From: Patescibacteria group bacterium
GTDB taxonomy: Bacteria > Patescibacteriota > Minisyncoccia > 2-02-FULL-40-12
Assembly (NCBI GenBank): GCA_038062015.1
Contig: JBBTXZ010000005.1
Coordinates: 24,215-88,214 of the forward strand
Direction: 5' to 3'
DNA length: 64,000 nt
Shown in pieces: positions 1,415-63,841 of this stretch. Made by a program: the position numbers and the translations under genes. Each line of letters opens with the position of its first letter. Position 1 is the stretch's first letter. Under the pieces are notes generated by a model. That model saw only the letters and a list, made by a program, of their open reading frames with translations, ran no database searches and was not told the origin of the DNA.

Positions 1415-4400
1415 ATGAAGCCTGAATTCAGTTTACCGAGAACAGAAGAAGAAATCCAGAAGTTTTGGGAGGCCAACAAGGTTTTTGAAAAAACTCTCGA
1501 AAACCGCAAGCGAGGCAAAAAATTTGTTTTTTATGAAGGACCGCCCACGGCCAACGGCCTGCCTCACATCGGTCATTTTTTGACCCGGGCGTTTAAGGAT
1601 TTGTTCGTTCGCTATAAAACTATGCGCGGTTTTTTTGTCCCCCGCCGGGCCGGCTGGGATACTCATGGCCTGCCAGTTGAAATAGAAGTTGAAAAAGAGC
1701 TCGGATTGAAATCAAAAAAAGAAATTGAAAAATACGGCATTGCCAAGTTCAATAAAAAAGCAAGGGAATCGGTCTGGCGCTATAAAGGTGAATGGGAGAA
1801 ATTTTCAAAGCGAATCGGATTCTGGCTGGATTTTGACAACCCTTATATCACCTATGCCAATGATTATATTGAAACGCTTTGGCATATAGTTAAGCAGTTT
1901 GATAAGAAAAAATTCCTGTATCAAGGCCATAAAGTTCTGCCCTGGTGCCCGCGCTGCGGTACTACCCTTTCAAGCCATGAAGTCGCTTTAGGATATGAAA
2001 GTATAACCGAGGATTCGGTTTATGTGAAGTTTAAAGTTACTGGCTATGAAAGATCACCGATCTATTTACTTGCTTGGACAACTACGCCTTGGACATTGCC
2101 CGGCAATGTTGCTTTGGCCGTTGGTAAAGATATAACTTATGTTAAGGGTTTTGTGCCGAATAAAGAGGAAATAGAATTTTATATCTTTGCAAAAGACCAA
2201 CTTCCTAAAATTAATGAAATTTTAGGTGAGGATTTGAATATAGTTACAGAATTCCCGGGAGGCGAGCTGGTCGGTTGGGAATACGAGCCCTTATTTGAAG
2301 TCAAAAAACTAAAATCCAATAAATCGTATAAAATTTATCCGGCTGATTTTGTGAATACCGAAGAAGGCGCCGGCGTAGTCCATACCGCGGTGATGTATGG
2401 AGAAGATGATTATCAATTAGGGGAAAAAGTCGGCCTGCCTAAACATCATACAGTAGATAAAGAAGGAAAATTCACTGAAGACGTTCCTGAATTTGCCGGC
2501 AGATTCGTTAAAGATGCCGAAAAAGACGTCATTGCTTACTTAAAAAACAAAAATCTTTTATTTAAAGTTGAACCTTATACTCATGATTATCCTTTTTGTT
2601 GGAGATGCAAAACGCCACTACTCTATTATGCGACCGATTCTTGGTTCGTAAAAACCACAGCCGTAAAAAAACAATTAATCGCCAACAACAAAAAAATAAA
2701 CTGGATTCCGCCCTACATTAAAGAGGGTCGTTTCGGCCAGTGGCTTAAAGAAGTCAAAGACTGGGCTTTTTCGCGAGACAGATATTGGGGAACGCCTCTG
2801 CCAATTTGGCATTGCCAAATTGGCAGAAGTAAAAAGTTAAAAGTTAAAAGTAAAAACTCAGATAATAATGGCTGCGGGAATTATTTAGTTATCGGATCAT
2901 TGGAAGAATTAGAGAAGCACCGCTATCAAAAACCAAACAGATACCATATCATCCGCCATGCCGAAAGCACAAAAAATATTGAGGGCCGGGAAATAAACAG
3001 CGTCAAACTGGAAAGTGATAAATATGATCTGACCGAAAAAGGGATCAACCAGGCCAGAAAATTAGCCAAAGATTTGAAAAACGAAAAAATAGACTTGATT
3101 TTCAGTTCCCCATTTTTAAGAGCTGAAAGAACCGCTGGAATAATAGCTGAAGAGTTGGGGCTTAAAGAAAAAGTTGACCACCGGCTTAAAGAAATAGACC
3201 ACGGAAGCGTCTGTGAAGGCAAGGATTATTTTGCCTGCATACCGAAAGGCCAATACCCTAACAAAGATTTTAACACTAAGTTCGGGCCGGATGGAGAGAG
3301 TCGGAATGACGTCAGAAAAAGAGTTTTTGATTTTATCAAAGAAACCGAAAGCAAATACGAAGATAAAAATATTTTAATCGTTAGCCACGGCGATCCTTTG
3401 TGGTTGATGGAGGGAATTTCAAAAAATCTTGGCGAAGAAGAATTATTTTCGGCGAAAAAGAACCAGATTTTGGGCATAAAAGATAATGCATTTAAGCTCA
3501 TTAAATTTGGAGAAAAAAGAGTTTTGGTTTTCGGCAATTATCCGAGGGATGAATTTGGGAATCCGGATCTTCACCGGCCGTATATAGATGAAGTTTTACT
3601 TAAATGCCCAAATTGTGGCGGCGGGACGCTAAGCGTCCCTGATAGCCACGCTCAGCGTGGCGAAATGAAACGGGTTCCGGAGGTAATTGATGTCTGGTTT
3701 GATTCGGGAGCAATGCCGTTTGCAAGTCGGCCTGACTTCCCGGCTGATTTTATAACCGAAGGCGTAGATCAGACCCGGGGCTGGTTCTACACTCTTTTGG
3801 CTGTTTCAACTCTTTTAGGCAAGAGTAATCCTTACAAAAATGTTATTTCTTTGGGTCATGTTTTGGATAAAGACGGGAAAAAGATGTCCAAGTCGCTTGG
3901 CAACGTGATTAAGCCTGATTATGTTATTGATAAATTCGGAGCTGATATTTCAAGATGGTGGTTTTATGGGGTTAATCAGGCCGGCGAATCAAAAAGTTTT
4001 CGAGAGGAAGAATTGAAAGAAATAACTAACGGCTTTGTCAGGGTGATTATAAATTCTTTGAGGTTTTGGCAATTATATAAAGGAAGTTCTAAAGCTAAAA
4101 TAAATTTCCACGATCTTAAAAATAAAAACTCTTTGAACTTATTAGACAGATGGTTATTATCAAAATGGAACAGTTTAGTTGATTTGGTTACAAAATCTTT
4201 GGATAAATACGACGCTACAACAGCAAGCAGAGAAATTGAAAAATTCGTGATTGAAGATTTATCCAATTGGTGGATTAGAAGAAGCCGGGATAAATTCCAA
4301 GTGCAACAAGGCGCTTCTCAGGAAGATTTACTAAGATTTGTCCTTTTGGAATTGTCGAAGTTAATTGCTCCGTTTGCGCCGTTTTTGGCGGAGTATCTGT

Positions 4401-5026
4401 ATAAGGAACTGCATCATGGTGTTAAGTTAGACGTGGCGAGTATTCATTTTCACAATTGGCCCAAAGCCGACAAAAAGCTGATTGATGAAAAGTTGGAAAA
4501 AGAAATGGAATTAGTGAGAGAGATTGTAAGTCTGGGCTTGGCGGCAAGGAAAGACGCGGGAATTAAGGTGAGGCAACCGCTGGCTTCGCTTGAAGTTTCA
4601 AAGTTTCAAAGTTTCAAAGTTTCAGAAGAGTTATTGAATCTAATAAAAGAGGAAGTGAATGTGAAAGACATAGAATTTAAAAGTTTAAAGTTTAAAGAAA
4701 CTGACAAAGAAGAACTATCGGTTGTTTTGGACACTGAAATTTCGCCGGCTTTAAGAGCCGGGGGTTGGGTTAGAGAATTTATAAGAATAATCCAGGATGC
4801 CCGAAAGGATGTCGGTTATGAATATGATCAAAAAGTCAGGGCTTACTGGTTTACTGAAGACAAATCTTTGGCCGAAGCCATAAAAAGAGAAGAAAAATTC
4901 ATAGTTCAAAAAACGGTTTTGAAAGAACTTCGCCAGTCTAACCACGACCCGAAGTTTGCCTATGATGTTGAAAAAGTCTGGGAGTTGGAACCGGGCCGAA
5001 AAATTTGGCTGGGATTGAAAAAGTGA
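1415..5026 (+). CDS. ileS: Isoleucyl-tRNA synthetase (type 2, eukaryote-like) carrying an internal ~200-aa histidine-phosphatase-like domain insertion
   Basis: HIGH motif (PHIGH), KMSKS, WFDSG and the CPNCGG zinc knuckle. 1203 aa, longer than usual because of the inserted domain (see findings). Confidence 0.95.
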   Translation: MKPEFSLPRTEEEIQKFWEANKVFEKTLENRKRGKKFVFYEGPPTANGLPHIGHFLTRAFKDLFVRYKTMRGFFVPRRAGWDTHGLPVEIEVEKELGLKSKKEIEKYGIAKFNKKARESVWRYKGEWEKFSKRIGFWLDFDNPYITYANDYIETLWHIVKQFDKKKFLYQGHKVLPWCPRCGTTLSSHEVALGYESITEDSVYVKFKVTGYERSPIYLLAWTTTPWTLPGNVALAVGKDITYVKGFVPNKEEIEFYIFAKDQLPKINEILGEDLNIVTEFPGGELVGWEYEPLFEVKKLKSNKSYKIYPADFVNTEEGAGVVHTAVMYGEDDYQLGEKVGLPKHHTVDKEGKFTEDVPEFAGRFVKDAEKDVIAYLKNKNLLFKVEPYTHDYPFCWRCKTPLLYYATDSWFVKTTAVKKQLIANNKKINWIPPYIKEGRFGQWLKEVKDWAFSRDRYWGTPLPIWHCQIGRSKKLKVKSKNSDNNGCGNYLVIGSLEELEKHRYQKPNRYHIIRHAESTKNIEGREINSVKLESDKYDLTEKGINQARKLAKDLKNEKIDLIFSSPFLRAERTAGIIAEELGLKEKVDHRLKEIDHGSVCEGKDYFACIPKGQYPNKDFNTKFGPDGESRNDVRKRVFDFIKETESKYEDKNILIVSHGDPLWLMEGISKNLGEEELFSAKKNQILGIKDNAFKLIKFGEKRVLVFGNYPRDEFGNPDLHRPYIDEVLLKCPNCGGGTLSVPDSHAQRGEMKRVPEVIDVWFDSGAMPFASRPDFPADFITEGVDQTRGWFYTLLAVSTLLGKSNPYKNVISLGHVLDKDGKKMSKSLGNVIKPDYVIDKFGADISRWWFYGVNQAGESKSFREEELKEITNGFVRVIINSLRFWQLYKGSSKAKINFHDLKNKNSLNLLDRWLLSKWNSLVDLVTKSLDKYDATTASREIEKFVIEDLSNWWIRRSRDKFQVQQGASQEDLLRFVLLELSKLIAPFAPFLAEYLYKELHHGVKLDVASIHFHNWPKADKKLIDEKLEKEMELVREIVSLGLAARKDAGIKVRQPLASLEVSKFQSFKVSEELLNLIKEEVNVKDIEFKSLKFKETDKEELSVVLDTEISPALRAGGWVREFIRIIQDARKDVGYEYDQKVRAYWFTEDKSLAEAIKREEKFIVQKTVLKELRQSNHDPKFAYDVEKVWELEPGRKIWLGLKK

Positions 5027-9436: not shown

Positions 9437-10482
9437 ACGGAGAACGCTCATTATTTGATATCTCAACCGCCGCTATTTTTAAATTCATAATAATCGTTTT
9501 GTTTTTTGTTTTGCTTTATCAGGTCCGGCAGGTCATTTTTATTCTTTTTTTTGCGATTATAATCGCTTCGGCGATGAATCCTTTTGGCCAGTGGCTTGAC
9601 CGCAAAAGGATTCCCCGCCTTCTGGGCATTTTGGTTTTATACCTGTCAATATTCCTTTTGGTGGTTTTCATTCTTACTTTGATTATTCCTTTTTTTTCAC
9701 AGGAAATCGGCCAGCTGACTGAAGACTTGCCGAGGTTTATCGCCCAAGTGACGGCTTCGCTTGAAGCTATTAAAAGCGAGTCAGGGACTTTTGATATCGT
9801 CAGTCAGCTTGTAGGAATTCTAGATAGTTTTTCCCAGTTTCTTCAGGAGTCAAGTCAATCTGCCGTTGGTTTGATTATAAACATTTTCGGAGGCATTATT
9901 TCGTTTTTCGGGGTGGTGATCATTTCATTTTATCTTTCGGTGATGAGAGGCGGAATTGACCAGTTTTTGAAGTCGGTTGTGCCGGATAAATACGAAAAAT
10001 ATATATTGGACTTATGGCACCGTTCTGAAAAAAATTTGGGCCGCTGGTTTCAGGTCCAGCTACTATTATCTTTGATCGTCGGCTTGATGACTTTTATCGG
10101 TCTGTCTTTGCTCGGCATAAAATTCGCTCTTGTCTTAGCTGGTTTGATTATGATTTTAGAATTAGTGCCTAATGTCGGTCCGGTCTTGGCCGCTATTCCG
10201 GCTGTGGGCTTAGCCTTTTTCCAGTCGCCTTCTTTGGGCTTCTGGACGATTGTTCTTTATATTGGAATCCAACAGATTGAAAATCAGGTTTTGACGCCGT
10301 TGATTATAGGCCGGACACTGGGTATTAATCCGGTGGTGGTGATTATTTCTTTGCTCGTCGGATTTAATTTAGCTGGGATTTTGGGGATGATTTTAGCGGT
10401 GCCGGTGGCCACTGTGATAGTGGAGTTGTTTAATGACATTGTTGAGAAAAAAGAAAAAGCCAGAGCCGCAGCTGGAGGCTAG
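9433..10482 (+). CDS. AI-2E family transporter (PerM/YhhT-like)
   Basis: Eight-TM pattern and conserved AI-2E family sequence character. Confidence 0.75.
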   Translation: MNGERSLFDISTAAIFKFIIIVLFFVLLYQVRQVIFILFFAIIIASAMNPFGQWLDRKRIPRLLGILVLYLSIFLLVVFILTLIIPFFSQEIGQLTEDLPRFIAQVTASLEAIKSESGTFDIVSQLVGILDSFSQFLQESSQSAVGLIINIFGGIISFFGVVIISFYLSVMRGGIDQFLKSVVPDKYEKYILDLWHRSEKNLGRWFQVQLLLSLIVGLMTFIGLSLLGIKFALVLAGLIMILELVPNVGPVLAAIPAVGLAFFQSPSLGFWTIVLYIGIQQIENQVLTPLIIGRTLGINPVVVIISLLVGFNLAGILGMILAVPVATVIVELFNDIVEKKEKARAAAGG

Positions 10483-10517
10483 AAGCTGGAGGCTGGAGGT
10501 TGGAAGCTGGAAATAGT

Positions 10518-13565: not shown

Positions 13566-15986
13566 ATGAAATATAATCCAAACAAAATAGAACGAAAATG
13601 GCAACGTTACTGGGAGAATAAAAAACTTTATCAAACTAAAGATAAAGTCAAAGGCAAGAAAAATTTTTATCATTTGGTGATGTTTCCTTATACTTCAGGC
13701 GATCTTCATATGGGACATTGGTATAATTATGCGCCATCAGACGTATATGCCCGTTTCAAGCGGATGCAGGGATTAAATGTAATGGCGCCGATCGGTTTTG
13801 ACGCTTTCGGGCTTCCGGCTGAAAATGCGGCCATCCAAAGAAATATCAATCCGGCTGATTGGACCAGACAAAATATCTCGTATATGACCAAGCAATTAAA
13901 AAGCATGGGCGCAATTTTTGACTGGTCGAGAAAAGTAGAAACAATTGACCCCGAATACTATAAATGGACCCAGTGGATATTTTTGAAGTTTTATGAAAAG
14001 GGTTTGGCTTATCGAGCTAAAACAAAAGTAAATTGGTGTCCTAAGGATAAAACTGTTTTGGCTAACGAGCAGGTCGTGGATAATTGCTGCGAAAGGTGTG
14101 GGACTCAGGTGGTTCAGAAAGAATTAGTTCAGTGGATGTTTAAAATCACAAAATATGCCGATCAGCTTATTGATGATTTGGAAAAACTTGATTGGCCTGA
14201 AATAACTAAAACCGCCCAGAAGAATTGGATAGGAAGATCGCAGGGAGCAGTTATAAAATTTCAAGTTGAAAATTCAAAGAATTATGTAGATGTTTTTACG
14301 ACTAGGCCTGATACTATTTTCGGCGCTACTTTTATGGTTTTAGCGCCGGAGCATGAATTGGTTAAGAAAATTACTAAAGATCAATTTTTAGGCCAAGTAA
14401 ATAATTATCTTGAGAATGCAAAAAAGAAAACAGAGCTTGAAAGATTGGCTGAAGTAAAAGAAAAGACAGGGGTTTTTACTGGTGCTTATGCTTTCAATCC
14501 GGCAACCAAAGAGAAAATTCCGATTTGGATTTCTGATTTTGTTTTGCCTCATTACGGTACTGGCGCGATTATGGCTGTTCCGGCCCATGATGAAAGGGAT
14601 TTTGAGTTTGCAAAGAAGTTTAATTTATCCATTAGGGAAGTTATTGGCGGCGGCGATATTTTAAAAGAAGCGTACGAAGGCGAAGGTAAATTGATTAATT
14701 CGGGGAAGTTTTCCGGAATGGATTCTGAAAAAGCCAAGTGGGAAATTACAGAATTTGTCGGCGGAAAGAAAATGATTTCTTATCGGCTGCACGACTGGAT
14801 AATTTCTCGTCAGCGGTATTGGGGGGCGCCGATCCCAATGGTTTATTGCCAGAAATGTGATTGGCAGCCAGTTTCAGAAAAAGATTTGCCGGTTTTACTG
14901 CCTAAAATAAGAGATTACAAACCCCCTGGAACTGGAGAGCCGCCTTTAGTTAAAGCTAAAGATTGGCTCAATGTAAAATGTCCAAGATGTTTCGGTCAAG
15001 CTCGGCGTGAGACGGATACCATGGATGCTTTCGTTGATTCGGCTTGGTATTTTCTGCGATATAGCGATCCAAAAAACAAAAAACAATTTGCTTCAAAAGA
15101 CAAATTGGAGTCTTGGCTTCCGGTAGATATGTATATCGGCGGCCAGGAGCACGCCACTAAACACCTGCTTTATGCCAGATTTATAACCAAAGTTTTGAAT
15201 GACTCTGGTTATTTGAGTTTTGACGAGCCGTTTAAGACTATGAGGCATCAAGGTCTGATTTTGGGCCTTGACGGGAATAAAATGTCTAAATCAAGAGGCA
15301 ATATAGTTGATCCCGATGAAATGGTTAAGAAATTTGGTTCAGATTCTGTTCGAATGTATCTTTGTTTTATGGGGCCTTATGAAAACGGCGGACCTTGGGA
15401 TCCGAAAGCGATTGTTGGAGTATTCAGATTCCTAAACCGAGTTTGGAATCTGATAAAACCCAAATTCCAAAATCCAAATGACAAATCAATTCCAAATTCC
15501 AAAATCCAAAACAAAGAATTAGATAAAGTTTTCAATAAAGCGATTAAAAAAGTTGGCGAAGATATAGAAAACTTAAGATTTAACACAGCGGTGAGCGAAT
15601 TGATGAAGTTACTTAACGAAATAGAAGATTTTATTAATAAAGGTTTTACGTTTCAAGTTTCAAGCTTCAAGGTCTTTTTGAAATTGCTGGCGCCATTCGC
15701 GCCGCATTTAGCTGAAGAGCTTTGGCATCAGATTGGGAACAAAAAATCAATCCATTTAGAAAAGTGGCCGGAGTATAACCCGAAACTTATTGAAGATGAG
15801 ACAGTTGATTTGGTGATTCAAGTTAATGGCCGGACTCGGGATGTAATCAAAGCCCCGCATGATTTAACCGAGCCGCAAGCCCGCGAATTGGCTCTAGCTT
15901 CGGAAAAAATCAAAAAATACGTTTCCGGAAAAGAAATCAAAAAATTTATTTACATCCCCAACAAAATCGCTAATATAGTAATTTAA
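13566..15986 (+). CDS. leuS: Leucyl-tRNA synthetase
   Basis: HMGH (HIGH) motif and KMSKS. Start placed at MKYNPNKIERKWQ (the track ORF begins upstream inside the insertion). Carries an in-frame 'ccaaaatccaaa' repeat at ~15459..15511. Confidence 0.9.
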   Translation: MKYNPNKIERKWQRYWENKKLYQTKDKVKGKKNFYHLVMFPYTSGDLHMGHWYNYAPSDVYARFKRMQGLNVMAPIGFDAFGLPAENAAIQRNINPADWTRQNISYMTKQLKSMGAIFDWSRKVETIDPEYYKWTQWIFLKFYEKGLAYRAKTKVNWCPKDKTVLANEQVVDNCCERCGTQVVQKELVQWMFKITKYADQLIDDLEKLDWPEITKTAQKNWIGRSQGAVIKFQVENSKNYVDVFTTRPDTIFGATFMVLAPEHELVKKITKDQFLGQVNNYLENAKKKTELERLAEVKEKTGVFTGAYAFNPATKEKIPIWISDFVLPHYGTGAIMAVPAHDERDFEFAKKFNLSIREVIGGGDILKEAYEGEGKLINSGKFSGMDSEKAKWEITEFVGGKKMISYRLHDWIISRQRYWGAPIPMVYCQKCDWQPVSEKDLPVLLPKIRDYKPPGTGEPPLVKAKDWLNVKCPRCFGQARRETDTMDAFVDSAWYFLRYSDPKNKKQFASKDKLESWLPVDMYIGGQEHATKHLLYARFITKVLNDSGYLSFDEPFKTMRHQGLILGLDGNKMSKSRGNIVDPDEMVKKFGSDSVRMYLCFMGPYENGGPWDPKAIVGVFRFLNRVWNLIKPKFQNPNDKSIPNSKIQNKELDKVFNKAIKKVGEDIENLRFNTAVSELMKLLNEIEDFINKGFTFQVSSFKVFLKLLAPFAPHLAEELWHQIGNKKSIHLEKWPEYNPKLIEDETVDLVIQVNGRTRDVIKAPHDLTEPQARELALASEKIKKYVSGKEIKKFIYIPNKIANIVI

Positions 15987-22728: not shown

Positions 22729-23622
22729 ATGTATCCAAATCTGCGAATAATTATTTTAGGGGTATTAACTCTATTTTTGGTTTTGACCTTTGTGGTTGAA
22801 TTCCGTGGCGAATACGGACTTAAAGTCTATTTTTTTGATGTCGGCCAGGGCGATTCAATTTTTATTGAAACAGAAGAAAAGAAACAAATTCTGATTGACG
22901 GCGGGCCGGATAACAAAGTGGTTCAAAAATTATCAGAAGCAATGCCATTTTGGGACCGAACCATAGACTTGGTTATTCTGACTCATCCGGACAAGGACCA
23001 TATCTTAGGTTTAATCGAAGTCTTGAAAAGATACCGAGTTAAGGGAATCATTGAAACTGGAATCGAATGCGGGAAAGCGGAATGTGTAGTCTGGAAAGAG
23101 TTGAAAGAAAAAGAAAAAGCGCCGGTTATTTTCGTGAAACTCGGCGACTCGTTAATACTTAACGAAAATACTAAAATTTTAATTTTAAATCCTTTCGCCG
23201 ATATGGCCGGAGAAAAAATTTCAAAAGCCAATAATTCTTCTATCGTGGCTAAATTAATCTACGATGGATACAGCATTTTATTGACCGGCGATATTGAGAA
23301 ACATATTGAAGAAAAGCTGGTTCTGGCCGGAGTAGACATTGATTCTGATTATCTTAAAATTCCGCATCATGGTTCTAAGACCTCAACCACCGAAGAATTT
23401 TTGGAAAAAATTTCCCCGCTTTCGGCTTTTATCTCTCTCGGCAAGAATAATTCTTACGGCCATCCGCATGATGAAGTTACCGGCCGTCTTGAAAAAAGAA
23501 ATATAAAATATTATCGTACTGATGAACTGGGAACTATTTTATTGAGTTGCAAGTTTAATGAACCGTGTTCAGTAAAATTCCAAATTCCAAATTCCAAAAT
23601 CCAAATAACAAATGACAAATAA
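22729..23622 (+). CDS. MBL-fold metallo-hydrolase (the ComEC C-terminal beta-lactamase domain as a separate gene)
   Basis: VYFFDVGQGDSIFIE and LVILTHPDKDHILG motifs. The 3' end runs into a 'ccaaaatccaaa' repeat. Confidence 0.8.
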   Translation: MYPNLRIIILGVLTLFLVLTFVVEFRGEYGLKVYFFDVGQGDSIFIETEEKKQILIDGGPDNKVVQKLSEAMPFWDRTIDLVILTHPDKDHILGLIEVLKRYRVKGIIETGIECGKAECVVWKELKEKEKAPVIFVKLGDSLILNENTKILILNPFADMAGEKISKANNSSIVAKLIYDGYSILLTGDIEKHIEEKLVLAGVDIDSDYLKIPHHGSKTSTTEEFLEKISPLSAFISLGKNNSYGHPHDEVTGRLEKRNIKYYRTDELGTILLSCKFNEPCSVKFQIPNSKIQITNDK

Positions 23623-23653
23623 AATCCAAAATCCAAATTCCAAAATAAATAAG

Positions 23654-24259
23654 ATGAAGAAATTACTAGCCGACCCCAAACATCCAAGGGAAGAAAAGAC
23701 CCTTGTTTTAATCAAGCCAGATGCCGTGAAAAGGGGGTTGGTCGGCGAAATAATCAAACGTTTTGAAAGCCGGGGACTTAAGATTATTGGTCTGAAAATG
23801 GTTCACGGCGCGCCAAAAGATTTTGACAAGCATTATCCTAAAAGCAAGGGATGGATTGCTAATTTAGGCAAAAGAACTATAGAAACCTACAAAAAATACA
23901 GTTACAGCTTGAAAAACGATTTTGGCACCGATGATCCGTTTAGAATCGGCAAAATTTTCCGTAACTGGCTGATTGATTTTATGGCTTCCGGGCCGGTGGT
24001 CAAGATTTTGATTGAAGGGGCTCATGCCATTGATGTGGTCAGAAAAATTGTCGGCGACACCCAGCCTCATTTTGCCCTGACCGGAACTATCCGCGGCGAT
24101 TTTAGTGTTGACTCGGCCGGCTCGGCGAATAAGTCAAAGCGGGCCGTTCATAATTTAGTTCACGCTTCGGGCGATAAAAATGAAGTCCGAAACGAAATAA
24201 TACTCTGGTTTAATCCCGAAGAAATCTGCGACTACAAGAGAGTGGAAGAGTTGATTTAA
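23654..24259 (+). CDS. ndk: Nucleoside-diphosphate kinase (with an internal insertion)
   Basis: TLVLIKPDAVKRGLVGEII... and active-site NLVHASGD. ATG at 23654. Confidence 0.8.
   Translation: MKKLLADPKHPREEKTLVLIKPDAVKRGLVGEIIKRFESRGLKIIGLKMVHGAPKDFDKHYPKSKGWIANLGKRTIETYKKYSYSLKNDFGTDDPFRIGKIFRNWLIDFMASGPVVKILIEGAHAIDVVRKIVGDTQPHFALTGTIRGDFSVDSAGSANKSKRAVHNLVHASGDKNEVRNEIILWFNPEEICDYKRVEELI
24203..24259. repeat. 56-bp direct repeat, copy 1 (the ndk 3' end)
   Basis: tctggtttaatcccgaagaaatctgcgactacaagagagtggaagagttgatttaa is repeated at 24998..25053. Confidence 0.9.
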
Positions 24260-24264
24260 TTGTA

Positions 24265-24675
24265 TTATTGCTGGATTTGAGTTATTGTTGGAGTTTTAAG
24301 TCCGGGTATTTTTTTTGATACATCTTCTTTAGCTAGAATTTTTGTTGCTAATTTAATAATTAAACTTAAATCAGGGCCGAATTTTGTGCCAATTTCGTCT
24401 AGGATTATCATTTCGTTAAGCAAATCTTCAAATTCTTCACTCAACTGGTCTCTAATCTTTTTATCTAAGGCATATTCAATTTTAATAAAACAATTACAGC
24501 CATCTTTTAGAGGAGTTTTTCCTTTCTGAAGAGCATCAATCACATCTAAAACCAGAAGAGCTGTTTCTCTTTCTATACCGGCAGTGTCTTTGCCTTCTTT
24601 TATCAAATTTAAAATCAACCGAAGCCGTTTTTGGATAATTTGATTATGTAGATTGTTTTTTTTCATTTTTACCAT
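24265..24675 (-). CDS. Hypothetical protein (second gene of the inserted two-gene cassette)
   Basis: ORF 136 aa, no recognisable motif. Its start overlaps the upstream ORF's end (operon-like). Confidence 0.4.
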   Translation of the reverse strand: MVKMKKNNLHNQIIQKRLRLILNLIKEGKDTAGIERETALLVLDVIDALQKGKTPLKDGCNCFIKIEYALDKKIRDQLSEEFEDLLNEMIILDEIGTKFGPDLSLIIKLATKILAKEDVSKKIPGLKTPTITQIQQ

Positions 24676-24683
24676 GATAATAA

Positions 24684-24959
24684 CTACTTTAAAATTATTT
24701 TTATGTCTTTGTGAATTACCCTGCCGGCTTTAACCACTACATGCCATACTTCAACTAACTTATTATTCTTAAATATTTTTACCATTTGCGATATGCCTTT
24801 ATCTTTTCCGAGAATTCCTCTTCTGACAATCTTAACAGAATAATTATCTATATTAACATAATCGATTTTTCTTAGCAATTTTGTGCCTCGGAAAGCGGTG
24901 ATTGATAATCGAGTTACAAGTTCTAAAATTTTAATAGTCCCTGAAGCAGGCATTGGCAT
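24684..24959 (-). CDS. Hypothetical small protein (first gene of the inserted cassette; possible toxin-antitoxin or defence pair)
   Basis: ORF 91 aa, basic, no recognisable motif. Confidence 0.4.
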   Translation of the reverse strand: MPMPASGTIKILELVTRLSITAFRGTKLLRKIDYVNIDNYSVKIVRRGILGKDKGISQMVKIFKNNKLVEVWHVVVKAGRVIHKDIKIILK

Positions 24960-24997: not shown

Positions 24998-25053
24998 TCT
25001 GGTTTAATCCCGAAGAAATCTGCGACTACAAGAGAGTGGAAGAGTTGATTTAA
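24998..25053. repeat. 56-bp direct repeat, copy 2 (duplicate of the ndk 3' end), followed by the original ndk terminator
   Basis: Identical to 24203..24259. Followed by aaaaaccgctttaagcggttttttgg. Confidence 0.9.
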
Positions 25054-25084: not shown

Positions 25085-25091
25085 TTTTAGT

Positions 25092-25161
25092 CGGGCTGCC
25101 GGGATTTGCACCCGGGCTAAATCGACCCCATCGACTCGTGCTGCTGCTACACCACAGCCCG
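25092..25161 (-). tRNA. tRNA-Pro(GGG)-like cloverleaf with non-canonical D-loop and T-loop (could be a tRNA-like element)
   Basis: Manual fold on the minus strand: acceptor CGGGCUG/CAGCCCG (7 bp), D-stem GUGU/GCAC, anticodon stem AGUCG/CGAUU with loop AUGGGGU (U33, GGG, G37), T-arm CCGGG-UGCAAAU-CCCGG. Lacks G18G19 and has G55. Begins 6 nt after the rpmB stop. Confidence 0.45.
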
Positions 25162-27100: not shown

Positions 27101-27305
27101 CAGAGAGAATATAGAACACAGAATATAGAATATAGGATATAGGATATAGAATAAGAATGACCAATTCCTTTAAGGATTTGATAGTTTGGCAAAAGTCTAA
27201 ACAACTAGCCGTAGAAATATATAAACTAATTTAGAAGAAATAATGAAAATATTAAACAACTTTGTTAAGAAGTTATCTTAGTTTTAATTCTATATTCTAA
27301 ATTCT
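27101..27305. repeat. ~200-bp spacer bounded by inverted 'tagaat'-type repeat arrays (MITE-like element)
   Basis: Left end gaatatagaatataggatataggatatagaat. Right end ttctatattctaaattctat (inverse). A compact version lies at 39181..39258. Confidence 0.5.
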
Positions 27306-34149: not shown

Positions 34150-34226
34150 CATCTACAAAATTACAAATCATTTACGAATATACAAATTTGTATATTTGTA
34201 GGGATTTGTAAATTCGTAGATATTTA

Positions 34227-36216: not shown

Positions 36217-36292
36217 TACTACGAAGTACGAATCAGTCCGAATGTACGAATTCGTATATTCGTAAAGATTCGTAAATTCGTAGTTTAACATT

Positions 36293-36921: not shown

Positions 36922-36997
36922 ATCTACGAATTTACCAATTCATTACAAATATACAAATATTTGTATATTTGTAGAGATTTGTAATTTTGTAGATAAA

Positions 36998-38619: not shown

Positions 38620-39183
38620 ATGAGCAGAATCGGCAAGCAACCAATTAAGATTCCTGAAGGCGTTGAAATAAAAATCAGCGATGATTTGATTTTGGTAAAA
38701 GGGCCAAGGGGTCAGTTGTCAAAAAAGATTTATCCTTTAATATCGGTCAGCGAAAGCGGCGGGTTAATCACGGTTCAGCCGAAAAATGATACAAAAGAAG
38801 CTTTGGCTTTGTGGGGGACTTTCCGTTCTTTGATTAATAATATGGTTAAAGGCGCAAAAGAAGGTTTTGAGAAAGTTTTGCTTTACGAGGGGATTGGTTT
38901 TAAATCTGAAGTGAAACAAGATCCTTCGGTTGAATCGGAGAAAGTACTGGAATTAAACGTCGGATTTACTCATCCGGTCAGAATTACGGCTCCCAAAGGC
39001 ATTGACTTTAAAGCCGAAAAAAACCAAATTACTATTTCCGGGGCTGATAAGGAGCTGGTCGGTCAGATTGCCGCAAATGTAAGGAACGTAAGGCCGCCAG
39101 AGCCATATAAAGGCAAAGGGATAAGATATAAGGACGAGGTGATAATCAGAAAAGCAGGGAAGAAAGCGGTGGCGACGGGATAG
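38620..39183 (+). CDS. rplF: 50S ribosomal protein L6
   Basis: MSRIGKQPIKIPEGV... L6 pattern. Confidence 0.95.
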   Translation: MSRIGKQPIKIPEGVEIKISDDLILVKGPRGQLSKKIYPLISVSESGGLITVQPKNDTKEALALWGTFRSLINNMVKGAKEGFEKVLLYEGIGFKSEVKQDPSVESEKVLELNVGFTHPVRITAPKGIDFKAEKNQITISGADKELVGQIAANVRNVRPPEPYKGKGIRYKDEVIIRKAGKKAVATG

Positions 39184-39258
39184 AGATAGAACATAGAATA
39201 TAGAATATAGAATGTAGAATACGATCCTATGTTCTATATTCTAAATTCTACATTCTAA

Positions 39259-39585
39259 ATGGATTCAAAAGAAAAACGACAAAAAAGAATAAGACGGCAT
39301 AAACGGGTGAGAGCGGTTGTGAAAGGCACAAGTGAGCGGCCTCGTTTTTCTGTTTTTCGTTCAAACAAACGGATTTACGCTCAACTGATTGACGATTTCA
39401 GAGGGATGACTTTATTAAACGGGAGCAATGTTAAAACATCTGCTTTTAAGGTCGGAGAAACTTTGGCGAAAAAAGCATTAGAGAAGGGAATAAATTCAGT
39501 TGTTTTTGATAGAGGAGGATATAAATATCACGGCCAAGTTAAGGCTTTAGCCGAAGGGGCAAGAAAAGGCGGATTGAAATTTTAG
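39259..39585 (+). CDS. rplR: 50S ribosomal protein L18
   Basis: L18 pattern (...[20 protein letters not shown]...). Confidence 0.92.
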
Positions 39586-51866: not shown

Positions 51867-52475
51867 ATGGCAAGAGTAGCACTCTGCGATATTCGTGGAC
51901 TGCTCGTTGATACGATCGAGAAGCTGTCGGGCGAAGATGGTACCGAGTGGGCTGAAGAGTTCAAGCAGATTCTCCGTAAGGGAGTATCGGGTTTGCTCAG
52001 GAAGTTCACCGAAGTCATGGCCACCGGCGTCCAGAGGTTCGTCGCCAGAGACGCTTTCGGCGAGAACAACGCTGACGGCATCAAGTTCTATCTCTGGCCG
52101 AATTTCGTGAACAACTACCTCGGTAAGATCGAGGAAGACGTGAAGCCGGCGACCATCGTCATCCACCGTCTCGAGAAGGCATCGCGCAACGACAAAATCA
52201 TGGCCGAGCTGGGCATTGACATCAAGACCAAGAAGGGGGTCATCAAGTTGGCCCACTTCCGCGAGATGCTCAAAGTTCAAGCCCAAGGCCAGGAAGGTCT
52301 TCTTCTTGTTAACGGTTACGCAAACATGGCGTATATCGAAGATGAGAAAGGGAAGGTCTGGGCCGTGTACGCGTACTGGTATTCGTCGTATCGCGAGTGG
52401 CGCGTCTTTGCCGACTCTGTCGAGGACCCGTGCGAGTGGTTTCAGGGCGACCGGGTTCTCTCGCAAGTATCCTAG
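51867..52475 (+). CDS. DGR target (variable) protein, GC-rich; the C-terminal ~36 aa are encoded by the variable repeat
   Basis: Strong SD aaggagg 7 nt upstream. The 3' end (52357..52462) matches the downstream TR except at TR adenines. A terminator follows. Confidence 0.8.
   Translation: MARVALCDIRGLLVDTIEKLSGEDGTEWAEEFKQILRKGVSGLLRKFTEVMATGVQRFVARDAFGENNADGIKFYLWPNFVNNYLGKIEEDVKPATIVIHRLEKASRNDKIMAELGIDIKTKKGVIKLAHFREMLKVQAQGQEGLLLVNGYANMAYIEDEKGKVWAVYAYWYSSYREWRVFADSVEDPCEWFQGDRVLSQVS
52357..52462 (+). repeat. DGR variable repeat (VR)
   Basis: 106-nt alignment with 52788..52893. All 16 mismatches lie where the TR has A (VR has T, C or G). Confidence 0.85.
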
Positions 52476-52512
52476 GATCTTGGGTCTTCGGACTTTTGGT
52501 CCTTGGGTCCGC

Positions 52513-52555
52513 CGGGTCGGTTGGAGTTTTCAACCGACCCGTTTTCTTTTACAAA
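52513..52555 (+). terminator. Hairpin + T-run downstream of the VR (gggtcggttgg...ccaaccgaccc gttttctttt)
   Basis: Seen directly. May also act as the DGR target-recognition hairpin. Confidence 0.6.
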
Positions 52556-52787
52556 AGTTTCCAGTAAGATATATTTGGATAGTAGGCGAATCTGCCGGCG
52601 GTTACGGCTTCCGGCGGCCGAACTCCAGGCGTGCATAATGGTTTTGAATATAGGAGCCTTAAAAACGAAGATACTTGGTGCGGAATATTAGGGGAATAAG
52701 GAAAATTATATTCCGAGGGTCCCGAATTCGATACAGTCCTGAGAGCATTCAAGGGGCAGTGGCACAGAAGATATTCCGTACGATAAT

Positions 52788-52893
52788 CTGGGCCGTGAAC
52801 GCGAACTGGAATTCGTCGAATCGCGAGTGGAACGTCAATGCCAACTCTGTCGAGAACCCGAACGAGTGGAATCAGGGCAACCAGGTTCTCTCG
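52788..52893 (+). repeat. DGR template repeat (TR), non-coding, rich in AAC codon-equivalents
   Basis: In the VR frame it would encode WAVNANWNSSNREWNVNANSVENPNEWNQGNQ. The ORF 52675..52989 in the track is an artefact of this repeat. Confidence 0.85.
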
Positions 52894-52920
52894 AAAATCT
52901 CTTCGTTCAATCCGCCTTAT

Positions 52921-53196
52921 CTATTGGCGGGTTGTTTTTTTCTGCCAGCCGCCGAGCATCCGGCCGACCTCTTCAAGTTTTATAGATAGAGCAATATACT
53001 GTTTACTATTCAATAGTTTTAGTTCCCACATTATCTGAAAAAGGAATTTTAGTATATCAAACGAGTCAGATGCTTTATTGAGATATATCAGTTTATCCGG
53101 TTTTGTTTTCCGACTCGCGATAAAAATATTCTGAATCGTTTCAATAAATAAAGATTCAATTTTAGCTCCAAGTCCGAATCTGGTCAGTTTGTCCAA
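52921..53196 (-). CDS. avd: Avd-like accessory variability determinant (four-helix-bundle, 23S-IVS protein family), antisense to TR and RT
   Basis: C-terminus ...YIALSIKLEEVGRMLGGWQKK matches the IVS/Avd family ending (E-I/V-G-K/R-M-L-x-G-L/W). TTG start, with no in-frame ATG upstream. Confidence 0.55.
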   Translation of the reverse strand: MDKLTRFGLGAKIESLFIETIQNIFIASRKTKPDKLIYLNKASDSFDILKFLFQIMWELKLLNSKQYIALSIKLEEVGRMLGGWQKKTTRQ

Positions 53197-53263
53197 ATGA
53201 ATCCAATAACCATGCCAAATCTTGTAAGCGGCAATAAGCTTTTGGAGTATCGGCAGAGTAAGG

Positions 53264-54247
53264 TTGGGGGGGGGGCGTAGAAGTCATCTTTATTATGAAG
53301 ATATTATCTCACTTGAAAATATTTTGGAAGCGTGGAAAGAATTCATCAAAGACAAAAGAAAGAAAAAAGATGTCTATGAGTTCCAGTTGAATCTGATGGA
53401 TAATATTTTGGAACTCCACCGAGATTTAAAGAGCTTCAAATATATTCATGGTGGTTATAAGGTATTCAAAATCAACGATCCGAAACCAAGAAACATCCAT
53501 AAAGCCGATGTCAGAGACAGATTACTGCATCACGCCATTTACAGAATTTTGTATCCGTTTTTTGATAGGACGTTTATTAGTGACTCTTTTTCCTGCAGAA
53601 ACTACAAAGGGACTCACAGGGCCTTAAACAGATTCAGAAGGTTTGGTTACAAGGTCAGTAAAAATAACACTAAAACCTGCTGGGTTTTAAAATGCGACAT
53701 CAGGAAATTCTTTGAAAATATTAGCCAAGATATTCTAATCGGTATTTTAAAAAAGTATATTCCAGATAAAAAAGTAATCTGGCTGCTTGAAAAAGTAATC
53801 CGCAGTTTTTCTTCTGGTTTGCCCCTCGGAAATCTTACTTCCCAACTCTTAATCAATATCTATATGAATGAATTTGACCAGTTTGTGAAACATAAATTAA
53901 GGATTAAATATTATATCAGATATGCTGATGATTTTGTCATCTTTTCGGGAGATAGAAACTGGCTTGAAAGTAAAATAGAACCGATTAGGAACTTCTTATC
54001 TGACAGATTGAAATTAGAGCTTCATTCGGATAAGATTTTCATTAAAACCTTAGCTTCGGGAGTTGATTTTCTCGGCTGGGTTCATTTTCCGGACCACAGA
54101 ATTCTAAGAACAACTACCAAAAGAAGAATGTTTAGAAGATTAAAAGAATCAAGAAATCAAGAAACTCTTAATTCTTATTTGGGGTTGATTAAACACGGGA
54201 ACACTGGAAAGATAAAAAAGAAGATTTATTTAATTCAAAAATTATGA
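53264..54247 (+). CDS. DGR reverse transcriptase
   Basis: RT motifs, including the catalytic YADD (IRYADDFVIF) and an upstream ...LPLGNLTSQLLINIYMNEFD (motif 4/5-like). TTG start flanked by a 10-G homopolymer. Confidence 0.85.
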   Translation: MGGGRRSHLYYEDIISLENILEAWKEFIKDKRKKKDVYEFQLNLMDNILELHRDLKSFKYIHGGYKVFKINDPKPRNIHKADVRDRLLHHAIYRILYPFFDRTFISDSFSCRNYKGTHRALNRFRRFGYKVSKNNTKTCWVLKCDIRKFFENISQDILIGILKKYIPDKKVIWLLEKVIRSFSSGLPLGNLTSQLLINIYMNEFDQFVKHKLRIKYYIRYADDFVIFSGDRNWLESKIEPIRNFLSDRLKLELHSDKIFIKTLASGVDFLGWVHFPDHRILRTTTKRRMFRRLKESRNQETLNSYLGLIKHGNTGKIKKKIYLIQKL

Positions 54248-54534
54248 ACCCCCACACTCACAAAGCTTATATGTTCTACGTTTATTTAATAAAAAGTAGG
54301 AAAACAGGTAATTTATACACGGGTTGTACTAGTAATTTGGTAAAAAGATTCAAAGAACATAATGAAAACAAAAACTTTTCTACGAAGAATAAAGGACCAT
54401 TTGAACTTATTTACTATGAAGCATATAAAAATAAAGACGATGCTTTCAATCGCGAACATAATTTAAAGCTTCGTGCCAATGCTTTAACTGGTCTTAAAAG
54501 AAGGCTGGTTAAAAGCCTCGGCAAAGCTTTATGA
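54244..54534 (+). CDS. GIY-YIG nuclease family protein (YhbQ/UPF0213-like), overlapping the RT stop by 4 nt
   Basis: FYVYLIKSRKTGNLYTGCTSNLVKRFKEHN, the GIY-YIG signature. Confidence 0.75.
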   Translation: MNPHTHKAYMFYVYLIKSRKTGNLYTGCTSNLVKRFKEHNENKNFSTKNKGPFELIYYEAYKNKDDAFNREHNLKLRANALTGLKRRLVKSLGKAL

Positions 54535-63235: not shown

Positions 63236-63841
63236 TTAATATTCAACGCCTCGCTTTACCGGTCCAAATTTATATTTGATTTCCTTCATTTCTGTGGCGA
63301 TGTCGGCTAGGTATATGAATTTTTGGGGCGCGTTTCGGCCGGTAAGAATGATGTCAGTGCCTTGGGGCGCCTTTTTGAGTATTTTTAAGATATCGTTTTC
63401 AGAAATCAGTTTCAAACTGATGGCGACATTGACTTCGTCTAAAATTACAAGATCATATTTTTTGCTCAAAATTATTTTTTCAGCGAGCTTCAGAGTTTTT
63501 TGAGCCGCTTTTTTGTGGACTGAACGCGGAAGCCGGTCACCCATGATGCCGACAAAGCCTTTACCGCCTTTGATTATTTGAAAATTATAGAATTTTTTTA
63601 ATTCTTCTGTTAATTTTTTATTTTTGCTTTGTAATTTTGATTTTTGATTTTTAATTTTTGATATCAGGTAATCTTCTCCCGATACCCATGGTCCCTTGAT
63701 GAACTGGATCATTATAACTTTCTTGCCTTCGCCCAAAGCCCGGATGGCCTGGCCCAAAGCCGCAGTAGTCTTACCTTTGCCGTTACCGGTATAAACGATA
63801 ATCATAAATGTTTGTTCAGGGAAACCGGCCCGCAACACCAA
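63236..63841 (-). CDS. cobO: Cob(I)alamin adenosyltransferase (CobA/CobO/BtuR type)
   Basis: P-loop-like IIVYTGNGKGKTTAALG and overall BtuR pattern. Confidence 0.75.
   Translation of the reverse strand: MVLRAGFPEQTFMIIVYTGNGKGKTTAALGQAIRALGEGKKVIMIQFIKGPWVSGEDYLISKIKNQKSKLQSKNKKLTEELKKFYNFQIIKGGKGFVGIMGDRLPRSVHKKAAQKTLKLAEKIILSKKYDLVILDEVNVAISLKLISENDILKILKKAPQGTDIILTGRNAPQKFIYLADIATEMKEIKYKFGPVKRGVEY

Follow-up and report, generated by a model that had tools for sequence, protein, structure and literature searches.

Degenerate heptanucleotide arrays in leuS and at the MBL/ndk junction

We analysed a stretch of 64,000 nucleotides (the window) from a metagenome-assembled genome of the Patescibacteria/Parcubacteria (NCBI GenBank assembly GCA_038062015.1, contig JBBTXZ010000005.1, positions 24,215 to 88,214 of the forward strand), in which a short repeat lies inside leuS, the gene for leucyl-tRNA synthetase (LeuRS), and again at the junction between a gene for a protein of the metallo-beta-lactamase (MBL) fold and ndk. 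The genome has ~40% G+C and 12.6% of the window is non-coding. Both loci are degenerate arrays of period 7, made of AAATTCC and AAAATCC units with the core AAATGACAAAT, and the best-supported view is that they are an instance of the known phenomenon of heptanucleotide simple-sequence repeats, found here in a Patescibacteria genome and often translated. We consider it probable that each of the two blocks is a single arm belonging to a class of C/A-rich heptanucleotide arrays that have been changed by slippage and filtered by selection. The features on which the argument rests are the following, where L128 and the like are our labels for the sequences compared.

15455..15518, + strand: degenerate heptamer array inside leuS (13566-15986), consisting of two lag-7 runs, 15459-15488 and 15484-15518
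15455..15518, + strand: units of the leuS array, AAACCC AAATTCC AAAATCC AAATGAC AAATCA ATTCC AAATTCC AAAATCC AAAAC
15477..15488, + strand: AATGACAAATCA, codons N-D-K-S, core of the leuS array (linker DNA of eight genomes; protein alignment)
23573..23652, + strand: composite heptamer array at the MBL/ndk junction (Tandem Repeats Finder, lag-7 scan), the composite occurring also in L128, L129, L137 and L235
23573..23652, + strand: units of the junction array, (AAATTCC)3 AAAATCC AAATAAC AAATGAC AAATAA AATCC AAAATCC AAATTCC AAAATAAATAAG
23575..23622, + strand: array-encoded tail KFQIPNSKIQITNDK of the MBL-fold protein (ComEC C-terminal type) with its TAA stop (23620-23622)
23612..23656, + strand: from the in-array ATG (23612-23614, in AAATGACAAATAA) to the conserved ndk ATG (23654-23656), a possible NDK extension, MTNKIQNPNSKINK
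63613..63662, - strand: (TCAAAAA)-type sense array in a CobA/CobO-like gene (63236-63841; Pfam CobA_CobO_BtuR), translated SKIKNQKSKLQSKNKK

Both sequences quoted in the original prediction, which was made from the sequence of the window, were found where it had placed them. Tandem Repeats Finder reports period 7 at each locus, with 8.6 copies and 73% matches in leuS (15455-15511) and 10.4 copies and 80% matches at the junction (23575-23644), and the unit can be described as a CAAAW core with two variable bases (CCAAATT, CCAAAAT, GACAAAT). Local alignment of the two loci extends over ~66 nt with one gap of exactly 7 nt, and an exact stretch of 20 nt as well as the higher-order layout are common to both. 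The 12-mer CCAAAATCCAAA, when one mismatch is allowed, matches the window 10 times as against 1.94 ± 1.29 times in 100 dinucleotide shuffles, none of which reaches 10; the repeat family that had been proposed, including its recurrence at the MBL/ndk junction, is therefore genuine. A search for further copies, which had been suggested as a check, gave a more limited result: nine of the 10 matches fall within the two known loci, no further copy of the array occurs in the 6.4 kb beyond the end of the window, and what was added is the related TCAAAAA-type array at 63613..63662, the unit of which is of the type found at the leuS site of L123. No inverted partner of either array is present in the window. 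Two assemblies of the same strain, L125 (99.88% identity) and L126 (99.99%), which show no indels, carry arrays identical to those of the window, and thus the arrays are not an assembly artefact.

It could be argued that such blocks are a chance by-product of A-rich coding for Lys, Asn and Gln in an AT-rich genome. The G+C content and the Lys/Asn/Gln-rich linker and tail peptides, of a kind common in variable loops, would agree with this, but no shuffle yields as many 12-mer matches as the window, the signal falls strictly at lag 7 whereas coding low complexity would produce one at lag 3 or 6, and both the exact 20-nt stretch and the layout are common to the two loci. Because of the lag spectrum and the shuffles we take this explanation to be already refuted and give it a negligible probability.

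As had been predicted, the leuS block is translated in frame, with 15459-15511 reading KPKFQNPNDKSIPNSKIQNK, and the junction array provides the last codons of the MBL-fold open reading frame (ORF) at 22729-23622, which ends in CSVKFQIPNSKIQITNDK followed by the stop. The encoded peptides are indeed similar, but this similarity cannot be counted as independent evidence: seven is coprime to three, and three units therefore always encode one seven-residue peptide, KFQIPNS or KIQNPKS. When the three array peptides were joined and searched in a set of 5.8 billion proteins, nothing scorable was obtained.

The array in the LeuRS linker

In the protein, the leuS array is situated in the context RFLNRVWNLIKPKFQNPNDKSIPNSKIQNKELDKVF, in the anticodon-binding domain, where it occupies the variable linker that follows the RFLNRVW helix. 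When 34 orthologs were aligned, the linker between RFLNRVW and K.FHKAIKK proved hypervariable, ranging from ~14 to more than 40 residues. The linker of the window, 27 residues long, aligns to approximately residues 693-722 of the Thermus thermophilus LeuRS (1H3N), and since that segment is of similar length the position is an ordinary variable connector. It had been suggested that LeuRS orthologs be checked for absence of the segment, and many close LeuRS do have a linker of only 14 residues, for example the array-free linker NLVNKKPGNDKSDK of L127. In five other Parcubacteria the same position carries period-7 sequence, made of differing units:

L001: AAATTCC AAATTTC AAAATTTC AAAACCC (unit AAATTYC)
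L122: (GCGAATA)n
L123: (TCAAAAA)3 TCAAAATGACAAATCAAAATTC
L124 (Harrisonbacteria): AAATGAC(CAACGAC)4
L128: AAAATCC...AAAATCCAAATGACAAA
L127: array-free, AAAAAACCGGGCAATGACAAATCAGATAAA

The arrays of the window and L001 differ in length by 24 nt. When the linker DNA of eight genomes was compared, the NDKS codons AATGACAAATCA were found also in the array-free L127 and in L123. NDKS is thus common to the array-free form, the heptamer units flank it on both sides, and AATGACAAATCA is probably older LeuRS sequence to which units were added in both directions. Arrays occur here in lineages with 60-75% LeuRS identity, and therefore the leuS array is not a recent insertion; the comparison points to a long-standing hotspot for heptamer arrays and not to the target of a single recent insertion. 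Most likely the leuS array has no function of its own, and it would then be neutral in LeuRS.

A second period-7 array in leuS, unrelated to the first, was noticed at 15640-15675; it consists of (GTTTCAA)3, is translated FTFQVSSFK and adds five residues relative to L001 and L122. The LeuRS ortholog encoded at 710-3595 of L128 (P0003) and those designated P0007 and P0018 are ~950-960 residues long and have NUDIX among their Pfam matches.

The MBL/ndk junction

Most MBL orthologs end in PCQVKTQN and the stop. The tail of the window protein is ~10 residues longer, and a subset of the relatives ends in SKIQ[IM][ST]NDK or SKFQNPNDK before the stop. The junctions of three lineages compare as follows:

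Window: (AAATTCC)3 AAAATCC AAATAAC AAATGAC AAATAA / AATCC AAAATCC AAATTCC AAA...
L128: AATTCC AAAATCC AAATGAC AAATGAC AAATAA / ATTCC AAAATCC AAATTCC AAA...
L129: AATTCC AAATTCC AAAATCC AAATGAC AAATAA / ATTTC AAAATCC AAATTCC AAA...

The upstream units number 4, 2 and 3, and the AAATRAC units 2, 2 and 1, in the window, L128 and L129, respectively, and despite these differences the frame is restored by a 1-nt change. Over these three lineages the array and spacer are 88-92% identical as against 74-81% for the flanking coding DNA. The closest MBL ortholog, that of L127, has a decayed A-rich period-7 spacer at the junction instead of the array.

The original prediction had described the second block as extending into the region upstream of the ndk start. 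It reaches further, to ~23652, and contains an ATG at 23612 that is in frame with ndk. The sequence AAATGACAAATAA combines the MBL stop (TAA) with this ATG, and from this start the two genes would overlap by 11 nt. In the window, L128, L129, L137 and L235 the in-array ATG is exactly 19 codons before the conserved ADP motif of NDK. In L129 and L137 the conserved position is not an ATG, and the array ATG is thus their only in-frame ATG; the gene callers place the ndk start at the array ATG in L125, L126 and L129. The extension follows the pattern MTNK[IF]QNP[NK]SK. It is likely that the junction array has been co-opted in two frames, one giving the MBL tail and stop and the other an ATG with either an NDK extension or a structure-free leader, and we infer that the array ATG is used in the strain of the window.

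The junction array has a single G, the minimum free energy of its RNA is 0 kcal/mol and 200 of 200 shuffles fold at least as well, while the leuS array RNA has a minimum free energy of -6.8 kcal/mol (z = -1.6). Neither a sigma-70-like promoter nor an intrinsic terminator was recognized in the junction array, and reading of the sequence gave no Shine-Dalgarno-like motif before ndk. A search of the window against Rfam returned RNase P and one tRNA only, with no hit on the arrays or on seven hairpin loci.

These properties raise the question whether the C/A-rich, G-free array is kept as a cis-acting signal with a function at the level of nucleic acid. Candidates would be an unstructured ndk leader or standby site in a setting of weak Shine-Dalgarno use, a Rho-loading (rut-like) tract, an array bound by an OB-fold or Avd-like protein, or a DNA uptake sequence. 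The better conservation of the junction array compared with its coding flanks would fit such a signal, as would the equal length, in three lineages, of the part downstream of the ATG, the RNA that is predicted to be free of structure, the want of a Shine-Dalgarno-like motif before ndk, and the location of eight of the 17 arrays of the window in or at non-coding DNA, often near a start codon; there is also a precedent in Beggiatoaceae, where TAACTGA repeats directly precede start codons and have been suggested to act in translation (PMC4679880). However, a coding NDK N-terminus explains the conserved length and frame equally well, and coding use alone can account for the conservation of the junction. 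A leader or rut role makes little sense for the leuS copy, which is deep inside a translated gene, and no single binding specificity fits because arrays of TAGAAnn, GCTGGAG and TTYGTAn hold equivalent positions. The density and single orientation of the arrays do not suit uptake sequences, and the junction array has neither a promoter- or terminator-like consensus nor an Rfam family. We therefore regard a selected cis-acting signal as improbable.

Downstream of the junction, the last 56 nt of ndk including its stop (24204-24259) are repeated exactly and in direct orientation 794 nt further on (24998-25053). The repeats bracket two minus-strand ORFs, 24265-24675 and 24684-24959, without a Pfam match, and the insert, which adjoins a tRNA-Pro gene (25090-25161) and is not in the relative L127, probably represents a small element which integrated here and restores the 3' end of ndk.

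Period-7 arrays in the window and in related genomes

The window was scanned for arrays under two thresholds, a strict one applied at lags of 2 to 15 and controlled with 20 dinucleotide shuffles and a looser one controlled with Markov simulations. The strict scan found 10 arrays at lag 7, two at lag 8, four at lag 14 and none at any other lag, and the shuffles contained none. With the looser threshold there were 17 arrays at lag 7, compared to ~0.1 in the simulations, six at lag 8 and at most one at each other lag. The relatives L122, L123 and L124 also give a signal at lag 7 only. The units of the window are of the types CCAAAWT, TAGAAnn, GCTGGAG, TTYGTAn, AAGTWAA, AAGTTTC and TCAAAAA, and most of them have a conserved core of ~5 nt with two variable bases. 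Nine of the 17 arrays are wholly intragenic; the other eight are those in or at non-coding DNA, often a few bases 5' of a start codon. A site in the isoleucyl-tRNA synthetase (IleRS) gene, at 4593, varies between lineages in the same manner as the leuS site, with (AAGTTTCA)4 in the window, TAGAAT-type units in L001 and non-repeat sequence of similar length in L122.

Several other arrays of this genome and its relatives were recorded. At 39181-39262, between two genes of the ribosomal-protein operon, two inverted TAGAAT-type arrays form a predicted hairpin of 28 pairs (-28.5 kcal/mol, z = -6) that ends at the next start codon. Three spacers of this operon (34170-34226, 36240-36292 and 36935-36996) have a TACRAAT/ATTYGTA palindrome followed by ATTYGTA heptamers and then the start codon; the variable base is nearly uniform within each copy (TTTGTA or TTCGTA), and they fold at -17.5 to -20 kcal/mol (z ~ -5.4). 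An array of (GCTGGAG)n at 10470-10514, which places a GGAGG motif every 7 nt, covers the end of an AI-2E transporter gene and the spacer to the next start codon, and another at 55073-55101 is inside a glycosyltransferase gene that also holds an AAGAAAT-type array (55230-55272). In L122 an identical 31-nt block, AAGTAAAAAGTTAAAAGTAAAAAGTAAAAAT, is found in the IleRS and serine hydroxymethyltransferase (SHMT) genes (856-886 and 13761-13791), and a variant of it is present at 2821-2863 in the window IleRS gene, at the site equivalent to that of L122. This window array is directly upstream of an inserted histidine-phosphatase (His_Phos_1) domain which splits the halves of the catalytic domain in the IleRS (gene 1415-5026, ~1200 residues; also in L001, L122 and L158).

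Distribution of the repeat in other genomes

In named genomes, a scan for at least three CCAAAWT units found at least 120 stretches in more than 10 phyla, the hosts including Cyanobacteriota, Acidobacteriota, Chloroflexota, Verrucomicrobiota, Bacteroidota, Planctomycetota and others, with five Patescibacteria among the matches listed. These arrays are mostly perfect, are often beside other heptamer arrays and often just 5' of an ATG, and are sometimes in frame within genes. Among the matches listed, arrays inside long ORFs are mostly read in the sense direction (KIQNPKS) and seldom in the antisense (GFWILDF): the counts are 25 and 5 where at least 100 open codons lie on each side, and 14 and 2 with at least 150. 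The CCAAAWT arrays of L102 (Chitinophagaceae) and L068 (Udaeobacter), which belong to different phyla, are translated at one shared position of a protein that appears by eye to be a PrmC/HemK-type methyltransferase, before its DxGTGSG motif.

Metagenome contigs were searched with the pattern CCAAAATCCAAAT, 0-7 bases and GACAAAT, which matched at least 117 stretches. Among the matches listed, to which the counts in this paragraph refer, the exact 20-mer CCAAAATCCAAATGACAAAT occurs in 89 copies and 86 distinct contexts. Its flanks have a lag-7 peak of 0.365 against ~0.25-0.29, the neighbouring units come from a small vocabulary (AATGACA, AATGTCA, AATGCCA, AAGCTCA, AAGTTCA, AAATCCA), and the repeat tracts are 27-125 nt long. 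A downstream inverted partner, giving a long A/U-rich hairpin with a stem of roughly 40-55 bp and often right after a stop codon, accompanies 28 of the 89 copies. Fourteen copies are in long ORFs, never with a hairpin, and read SKIQMTN or [IF]QNPNDK; the sense orientation is again preferred (11-14 versus 0-2). The hosts of these in-frame copies include IleRS, UvrC, GatB, TopA, PfkB kinases and glycosyltransferases, and in UvrC two organisms have the array in two different loops, both variable in length. Three contigs could be named through cluster members, as Doudnabacteria, Patescibacteria and one labelled Nanoarchaeia or uncultured archaeon. The original prediction of a short element tolerated inside coding sequence is thus upheld as regards tolerance, since the repeat is in frame in many unrelated housekeeping genes elsewhere, but not as regards the element, which is a heptanucleotide-periodic array without fixed ends whose unit number and type vary by lineage.

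Arrays flanking PF05635 genes

The commonest gene beside the metagenome arrays codes for a PF05635 protein (Pfam E-values 1e-15 to 1e-37). This family, the 23S rRNA intervening-sequence protein, forms a four-helix bundle and has a relative in the Avd protein of diversity-generating retroelements (PMC10053308). In L131, L160, L183, L194, L195, L228 and L242, PF05635 genes of ~115 residues lie between a C/A-rich array and an inverted T/G-rich partner, and in L160 the arms match perfectly (30/30). A second PF05635 gene in L183 and the gene in L101 (Desulfobacterales) also lie between inverted heptamer arrays, with units of a quite different kind, and the flanking types across loci comprise CCAAAAT/GACAAAT, GGTTTGT and ACTCCAW. 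In all, nine of the 12 PF05635 genes in the examined loci are between inverted heptamer arrays. In the rpsG/fusA spacer of the window, a TAGAAT-type array (27104-27158) is followed by the ORF MTNSFKDLIVWQKSKQLAVEIYKLI (27155-27232, 25 residues), which matches the first 19 positions of PF05635 with E = 5.7e-4, a score below the family cut-off, and an inverted ATTCTAT array (27281-27305) abuts the fusA ATG. Judged by its sequence, 27104-27305 resembles what would be left of a PF05635 cassette whose arms were inverted heptamer arrays. The leuS and MBL/ndk arrays do not form the stem of such a cassette, as neither has an inverted array across a PF05635 gene.

The grouping of PF05635 genes with flanking inverted arrays is proposed here and is not an established family, and no relevant report came out of a literature search on repeats beside PF05635 genes. 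Because the loci were selected as carriers of the repeat, the estimate of the association is biased, and the link is for this reason a lead and not a result. It is quite unlikely, though worth stating, that the heptamer arrays are cis-elements of a widespread selfish or regulatory cassette in which a PF05635 gene sits in the loop of a long stem of inverted arrays; by analogy, the layout would echo the stem and ORF of the 23S rRNA intervening sequences.

The same observations bear on the possibility that the blocks belong to a copy-and-paste family, in which each block would be one arm of a dispersed, non-autonomous element whose copies had been multiplied either by insertion resembling transposition or by gene conversion between arrays. 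Complete, this element would consist of two inverted heptamer arrays folding into a long hairpin, the loop of which might or might not contain a PF05635 gene, and the copies in leuS and at MBL/ndk would have begun as insertions or conversion tracts and been remodelled afterwards. The recurrence of the 20-mer, its hairpin partners and its in-frame presence in unrelated genes all fit this proposal. The inverted arrays around PF05635 genes and the similar fragment of the window, the identical 31-nt AAGTAAA-type block in two different genes of L122, and the patchy presence of the array among MBL orthologs with near identity where it is present do so as well. However, the two window loci have no fixed ends, terminal inverted repeats or target-site duplications, the tract length is far from constant, neither copy has an inverted partner, and no transposase or integrase is associated. 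Moreover, the unit number varies in 7-nt steps between lineages, the unrelated units at the leuS site of other lineages are not explained by the insertion of one element, only two or three loci were found in ~70 kb of the genome, and the preselection of the metagenome loci for the 20-mer means that the PF05635 association is not unbiased. We regard a copy-and-paste origin as rather unlikely.

A complete diversity-generating retroelement was found in the window at 51867-54534. It consists of a target gene (51867-52475) with the variable repeat at 52357-52471, a template repeat (52787-52901), a bAvd gene on the minus strand (52921-53196), a reverse transcriptase gene (53264-54247) and a GIY-YIG ORF (54244-54534); the template and variable repeats are 83% identical and all mismatches within them are at template adenines. 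An origin of the arrays by reverse transcription was considered, since a reverse transcriptase gene is located close to leuS in L001 and L122 and this retroelement is present in the window, but it finds no support here, as none of the 117 metagenome loci listed has a reverse transcriptase homolog.

Slippage and selection as the probable origin of the arrays

According to the explanation that we consider probable, this Parcubacteria genome would share with many other bacteria a general tendency to carry heptanucleotide arrays. These would lengthen, shorten and change their units where they stand, the simplest mechanism being slipped-strand mispairing by 7 nt at a time, and arrays that break genes would be purged by selection. 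Those surviving in coding DNA would be found at structurally permissive places, for example in the variable LeuRS linker and at the very C-terminal end of the MBL protein, with the reading frame kept by extra small indels. The surviving orientation would almost always be the one that gives a stop-free, hydrophilic and probably disordered peptide (K, Q, N, P, S, I) and not the hydrophobic antisense peptide (G, F, W, I, L, D). Slippage, as the presumed generating step, fits because unit numbers differ between lineages, and a selective filter for stop-free hydrophilic loops fits because of the position, frame and strand of the arrays.

Several findings weigh against this explanation. There are no indels in 18-21 kb among the three strain assemblies (the window, L125 and L126, compared as consensus assemblies and not as reads) and no length polymorphism, and hence the arrays are not currently hypermutable. 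A composite that includes the GACAAAT unit is present at two unrelated loci of one genome, and the exact 20-mer recurs 89 times in 86 contexts among the metagenome matches listed; for independent slippage to account for such recurrence, some preference for a limited set of units would be needed. Conservation of the junction array exceeds that of its coding flanks, and on the MBL tree the array is distributed patchily, with the closest ortholog, L127, having no array and the more distant L128 and L129 having it. Finally, the inverted pairs around PF05635 genes hint at copying or at a function beyond slippage. Because slippage alone leaves the recurrence, the patchy conservation and the PF05635 pairs unexplained, we allow copying or conversion some weight, as a rather unlikely alternative, and a cis function a smaller one.

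Comparison with known repeats

Heptanucleotide repeats are described as the most abundant class of long simple-sequence repeats (LSSRs) in most prokaryotic genomes, with slippage proposed as their cause (Mrazek et al. 2007, as summarised in PMC4679880 and PMC4692102). The head-to-tail 7-nt units, the genome-wide excess of period 7 and the variation in unit number between related genomes that characterize LSSRs are all found here, whereas within-population length polymorphism was not seen in the 18-21 kb of the three consensus assemblies. Prokaryotic heptanucleotide LSSRs, including the short tandemly repeated repetitive (STRR) sequences of heterocystous cyanobacteria, resemble the present arrays in having several unit types per genome, intergenic enrichment, occasional inverted pairs and variation in length and sequence between relatives, and CCAAAAT/CCAAATT itself is present as perfect arrays in many named genomes, among them those of Nostoc, Microcoleus and Calothrix. 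Unlike them, the Patescibacteria arrays are short and degenerate, with a 5-nt core and two variable bases, about half of those in the window are intragenic and translated although 7 is not a multiple of 3, and one composite recurs at different loci and genomes. A literature search for repeats of heptamer or hairpin type in Patescibacteria or the Candidate Phyla Radiation found nothing relevant.

The TAACTGA direct repeats of marine Beggiatoaceae and of some Cyanobacteria and Bacteroidetes (PMC4679880) are likewise heptamers directly 5' of start codons with a scattered phylogeny, and their tolerance too is decided by reading-frame content. TAACTGA hardly enters genes because its forward orientation carries stop codons, whereas CCAAAWT is stop-free in all frames of both strands and is found in frame; also, Beggiatoaceae have a single dominant unit and the window has many. 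The GGGAATC repeats of Xanthomonas and the GGGGAYT repeats of Nostoc (PMC4692102) are similar as intergenic heptamer arrays between conserved genes, variable between close relatives and sometimes in inverted pairs, but their units are G-rich and quadruplex-capable while the unit of the window is G-free on the sense strand and without predicted structure.

The classic in-frame repeats in protein-coding genes are the Rickettsia palindromic elements (RPEs), which occupy permissive surface positions in essential proteins including aminoacyl-tRNA synthetases. They are also intergenic, and each is a discrete palindrome, roughly 100-150 bp long, whose ends are defined. Like RPEs, the copies of the window and the 14 further in-frame metagenome copies among the matches listed are translated in frame at permissive sites, but those of the window are non-palindromic, lack defined ends and consist of 7-nt units. 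An RPE-like palindromic element is ruled out by the lack of an inverted partner in the window and by the folding energies given above for the junction and leuS RNAs. RPEs are mentioned in a review of MITEs, the miniature inverted-repeat transposable elements (PMC10969869), and a MITE is also ruled out, as comparison with the array-free L127 reveals neither terminal inverted repeats nor a target-site duplication and the tracts range from 27 to 125 nt. A DNA uptake sequence, expected about once per kb in both orientations, is ruled out by the presence of two loci in one orientation in ~70 kb. A phase-variable contingency locus is ruled out because the arrays are imperfect, are in frame in all lineages, reside in an essential synthetase and show no length variants, and a known Rfam RNA family because no match above the gathering score falls on the arrays. 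In Borg elements, in-gene repeat units are reportedly divisible by three, perfect and recent, whereas the unit here has 7 nt and the arrays are degenerate and old, being present in lineages at ~70% protein identity. What the two have in common is tandem DNA repeats within ORFs that evolve fast and add low-complexity, probably disordered peptide, and in Borgs such repeats create intrinsically disordered regions (PMC9879509).

Implications

The finding means that a mutational process working in 7-nt steps can still remodel essential proteins in the reduced genomes of Patescibacteria, where heptamer arrays write hydrophilic loops into aminoacyl-tRNA synthetases, UvrC, GatB and others. At MBL/ndk the stop of one gene and the start of the next are built from one repeat read in two frames. 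For annotation, the arrays create N-terminal extensions, spurious or real, and length variation in marker proteins. If the cassette proposal were true, the short-loop hairpins, the single-arm leaders and the in-frame copies, those in leuS and at MBL/ndk included, would be derivatives seeded by the cassette or its protein; the long-noted and unexplained excess of heptanucleotide repeats in bacteria would have a cause, and there would be a first functional handle on the stand-alone PF05635 proteins. The interest of the finding is moderate on its own and would be higher if the PF05635 link is general: should the association with inverted arrays hold in an unbiased survey, the preference of bacteria for seven-base repeats would become experimentally approachable.

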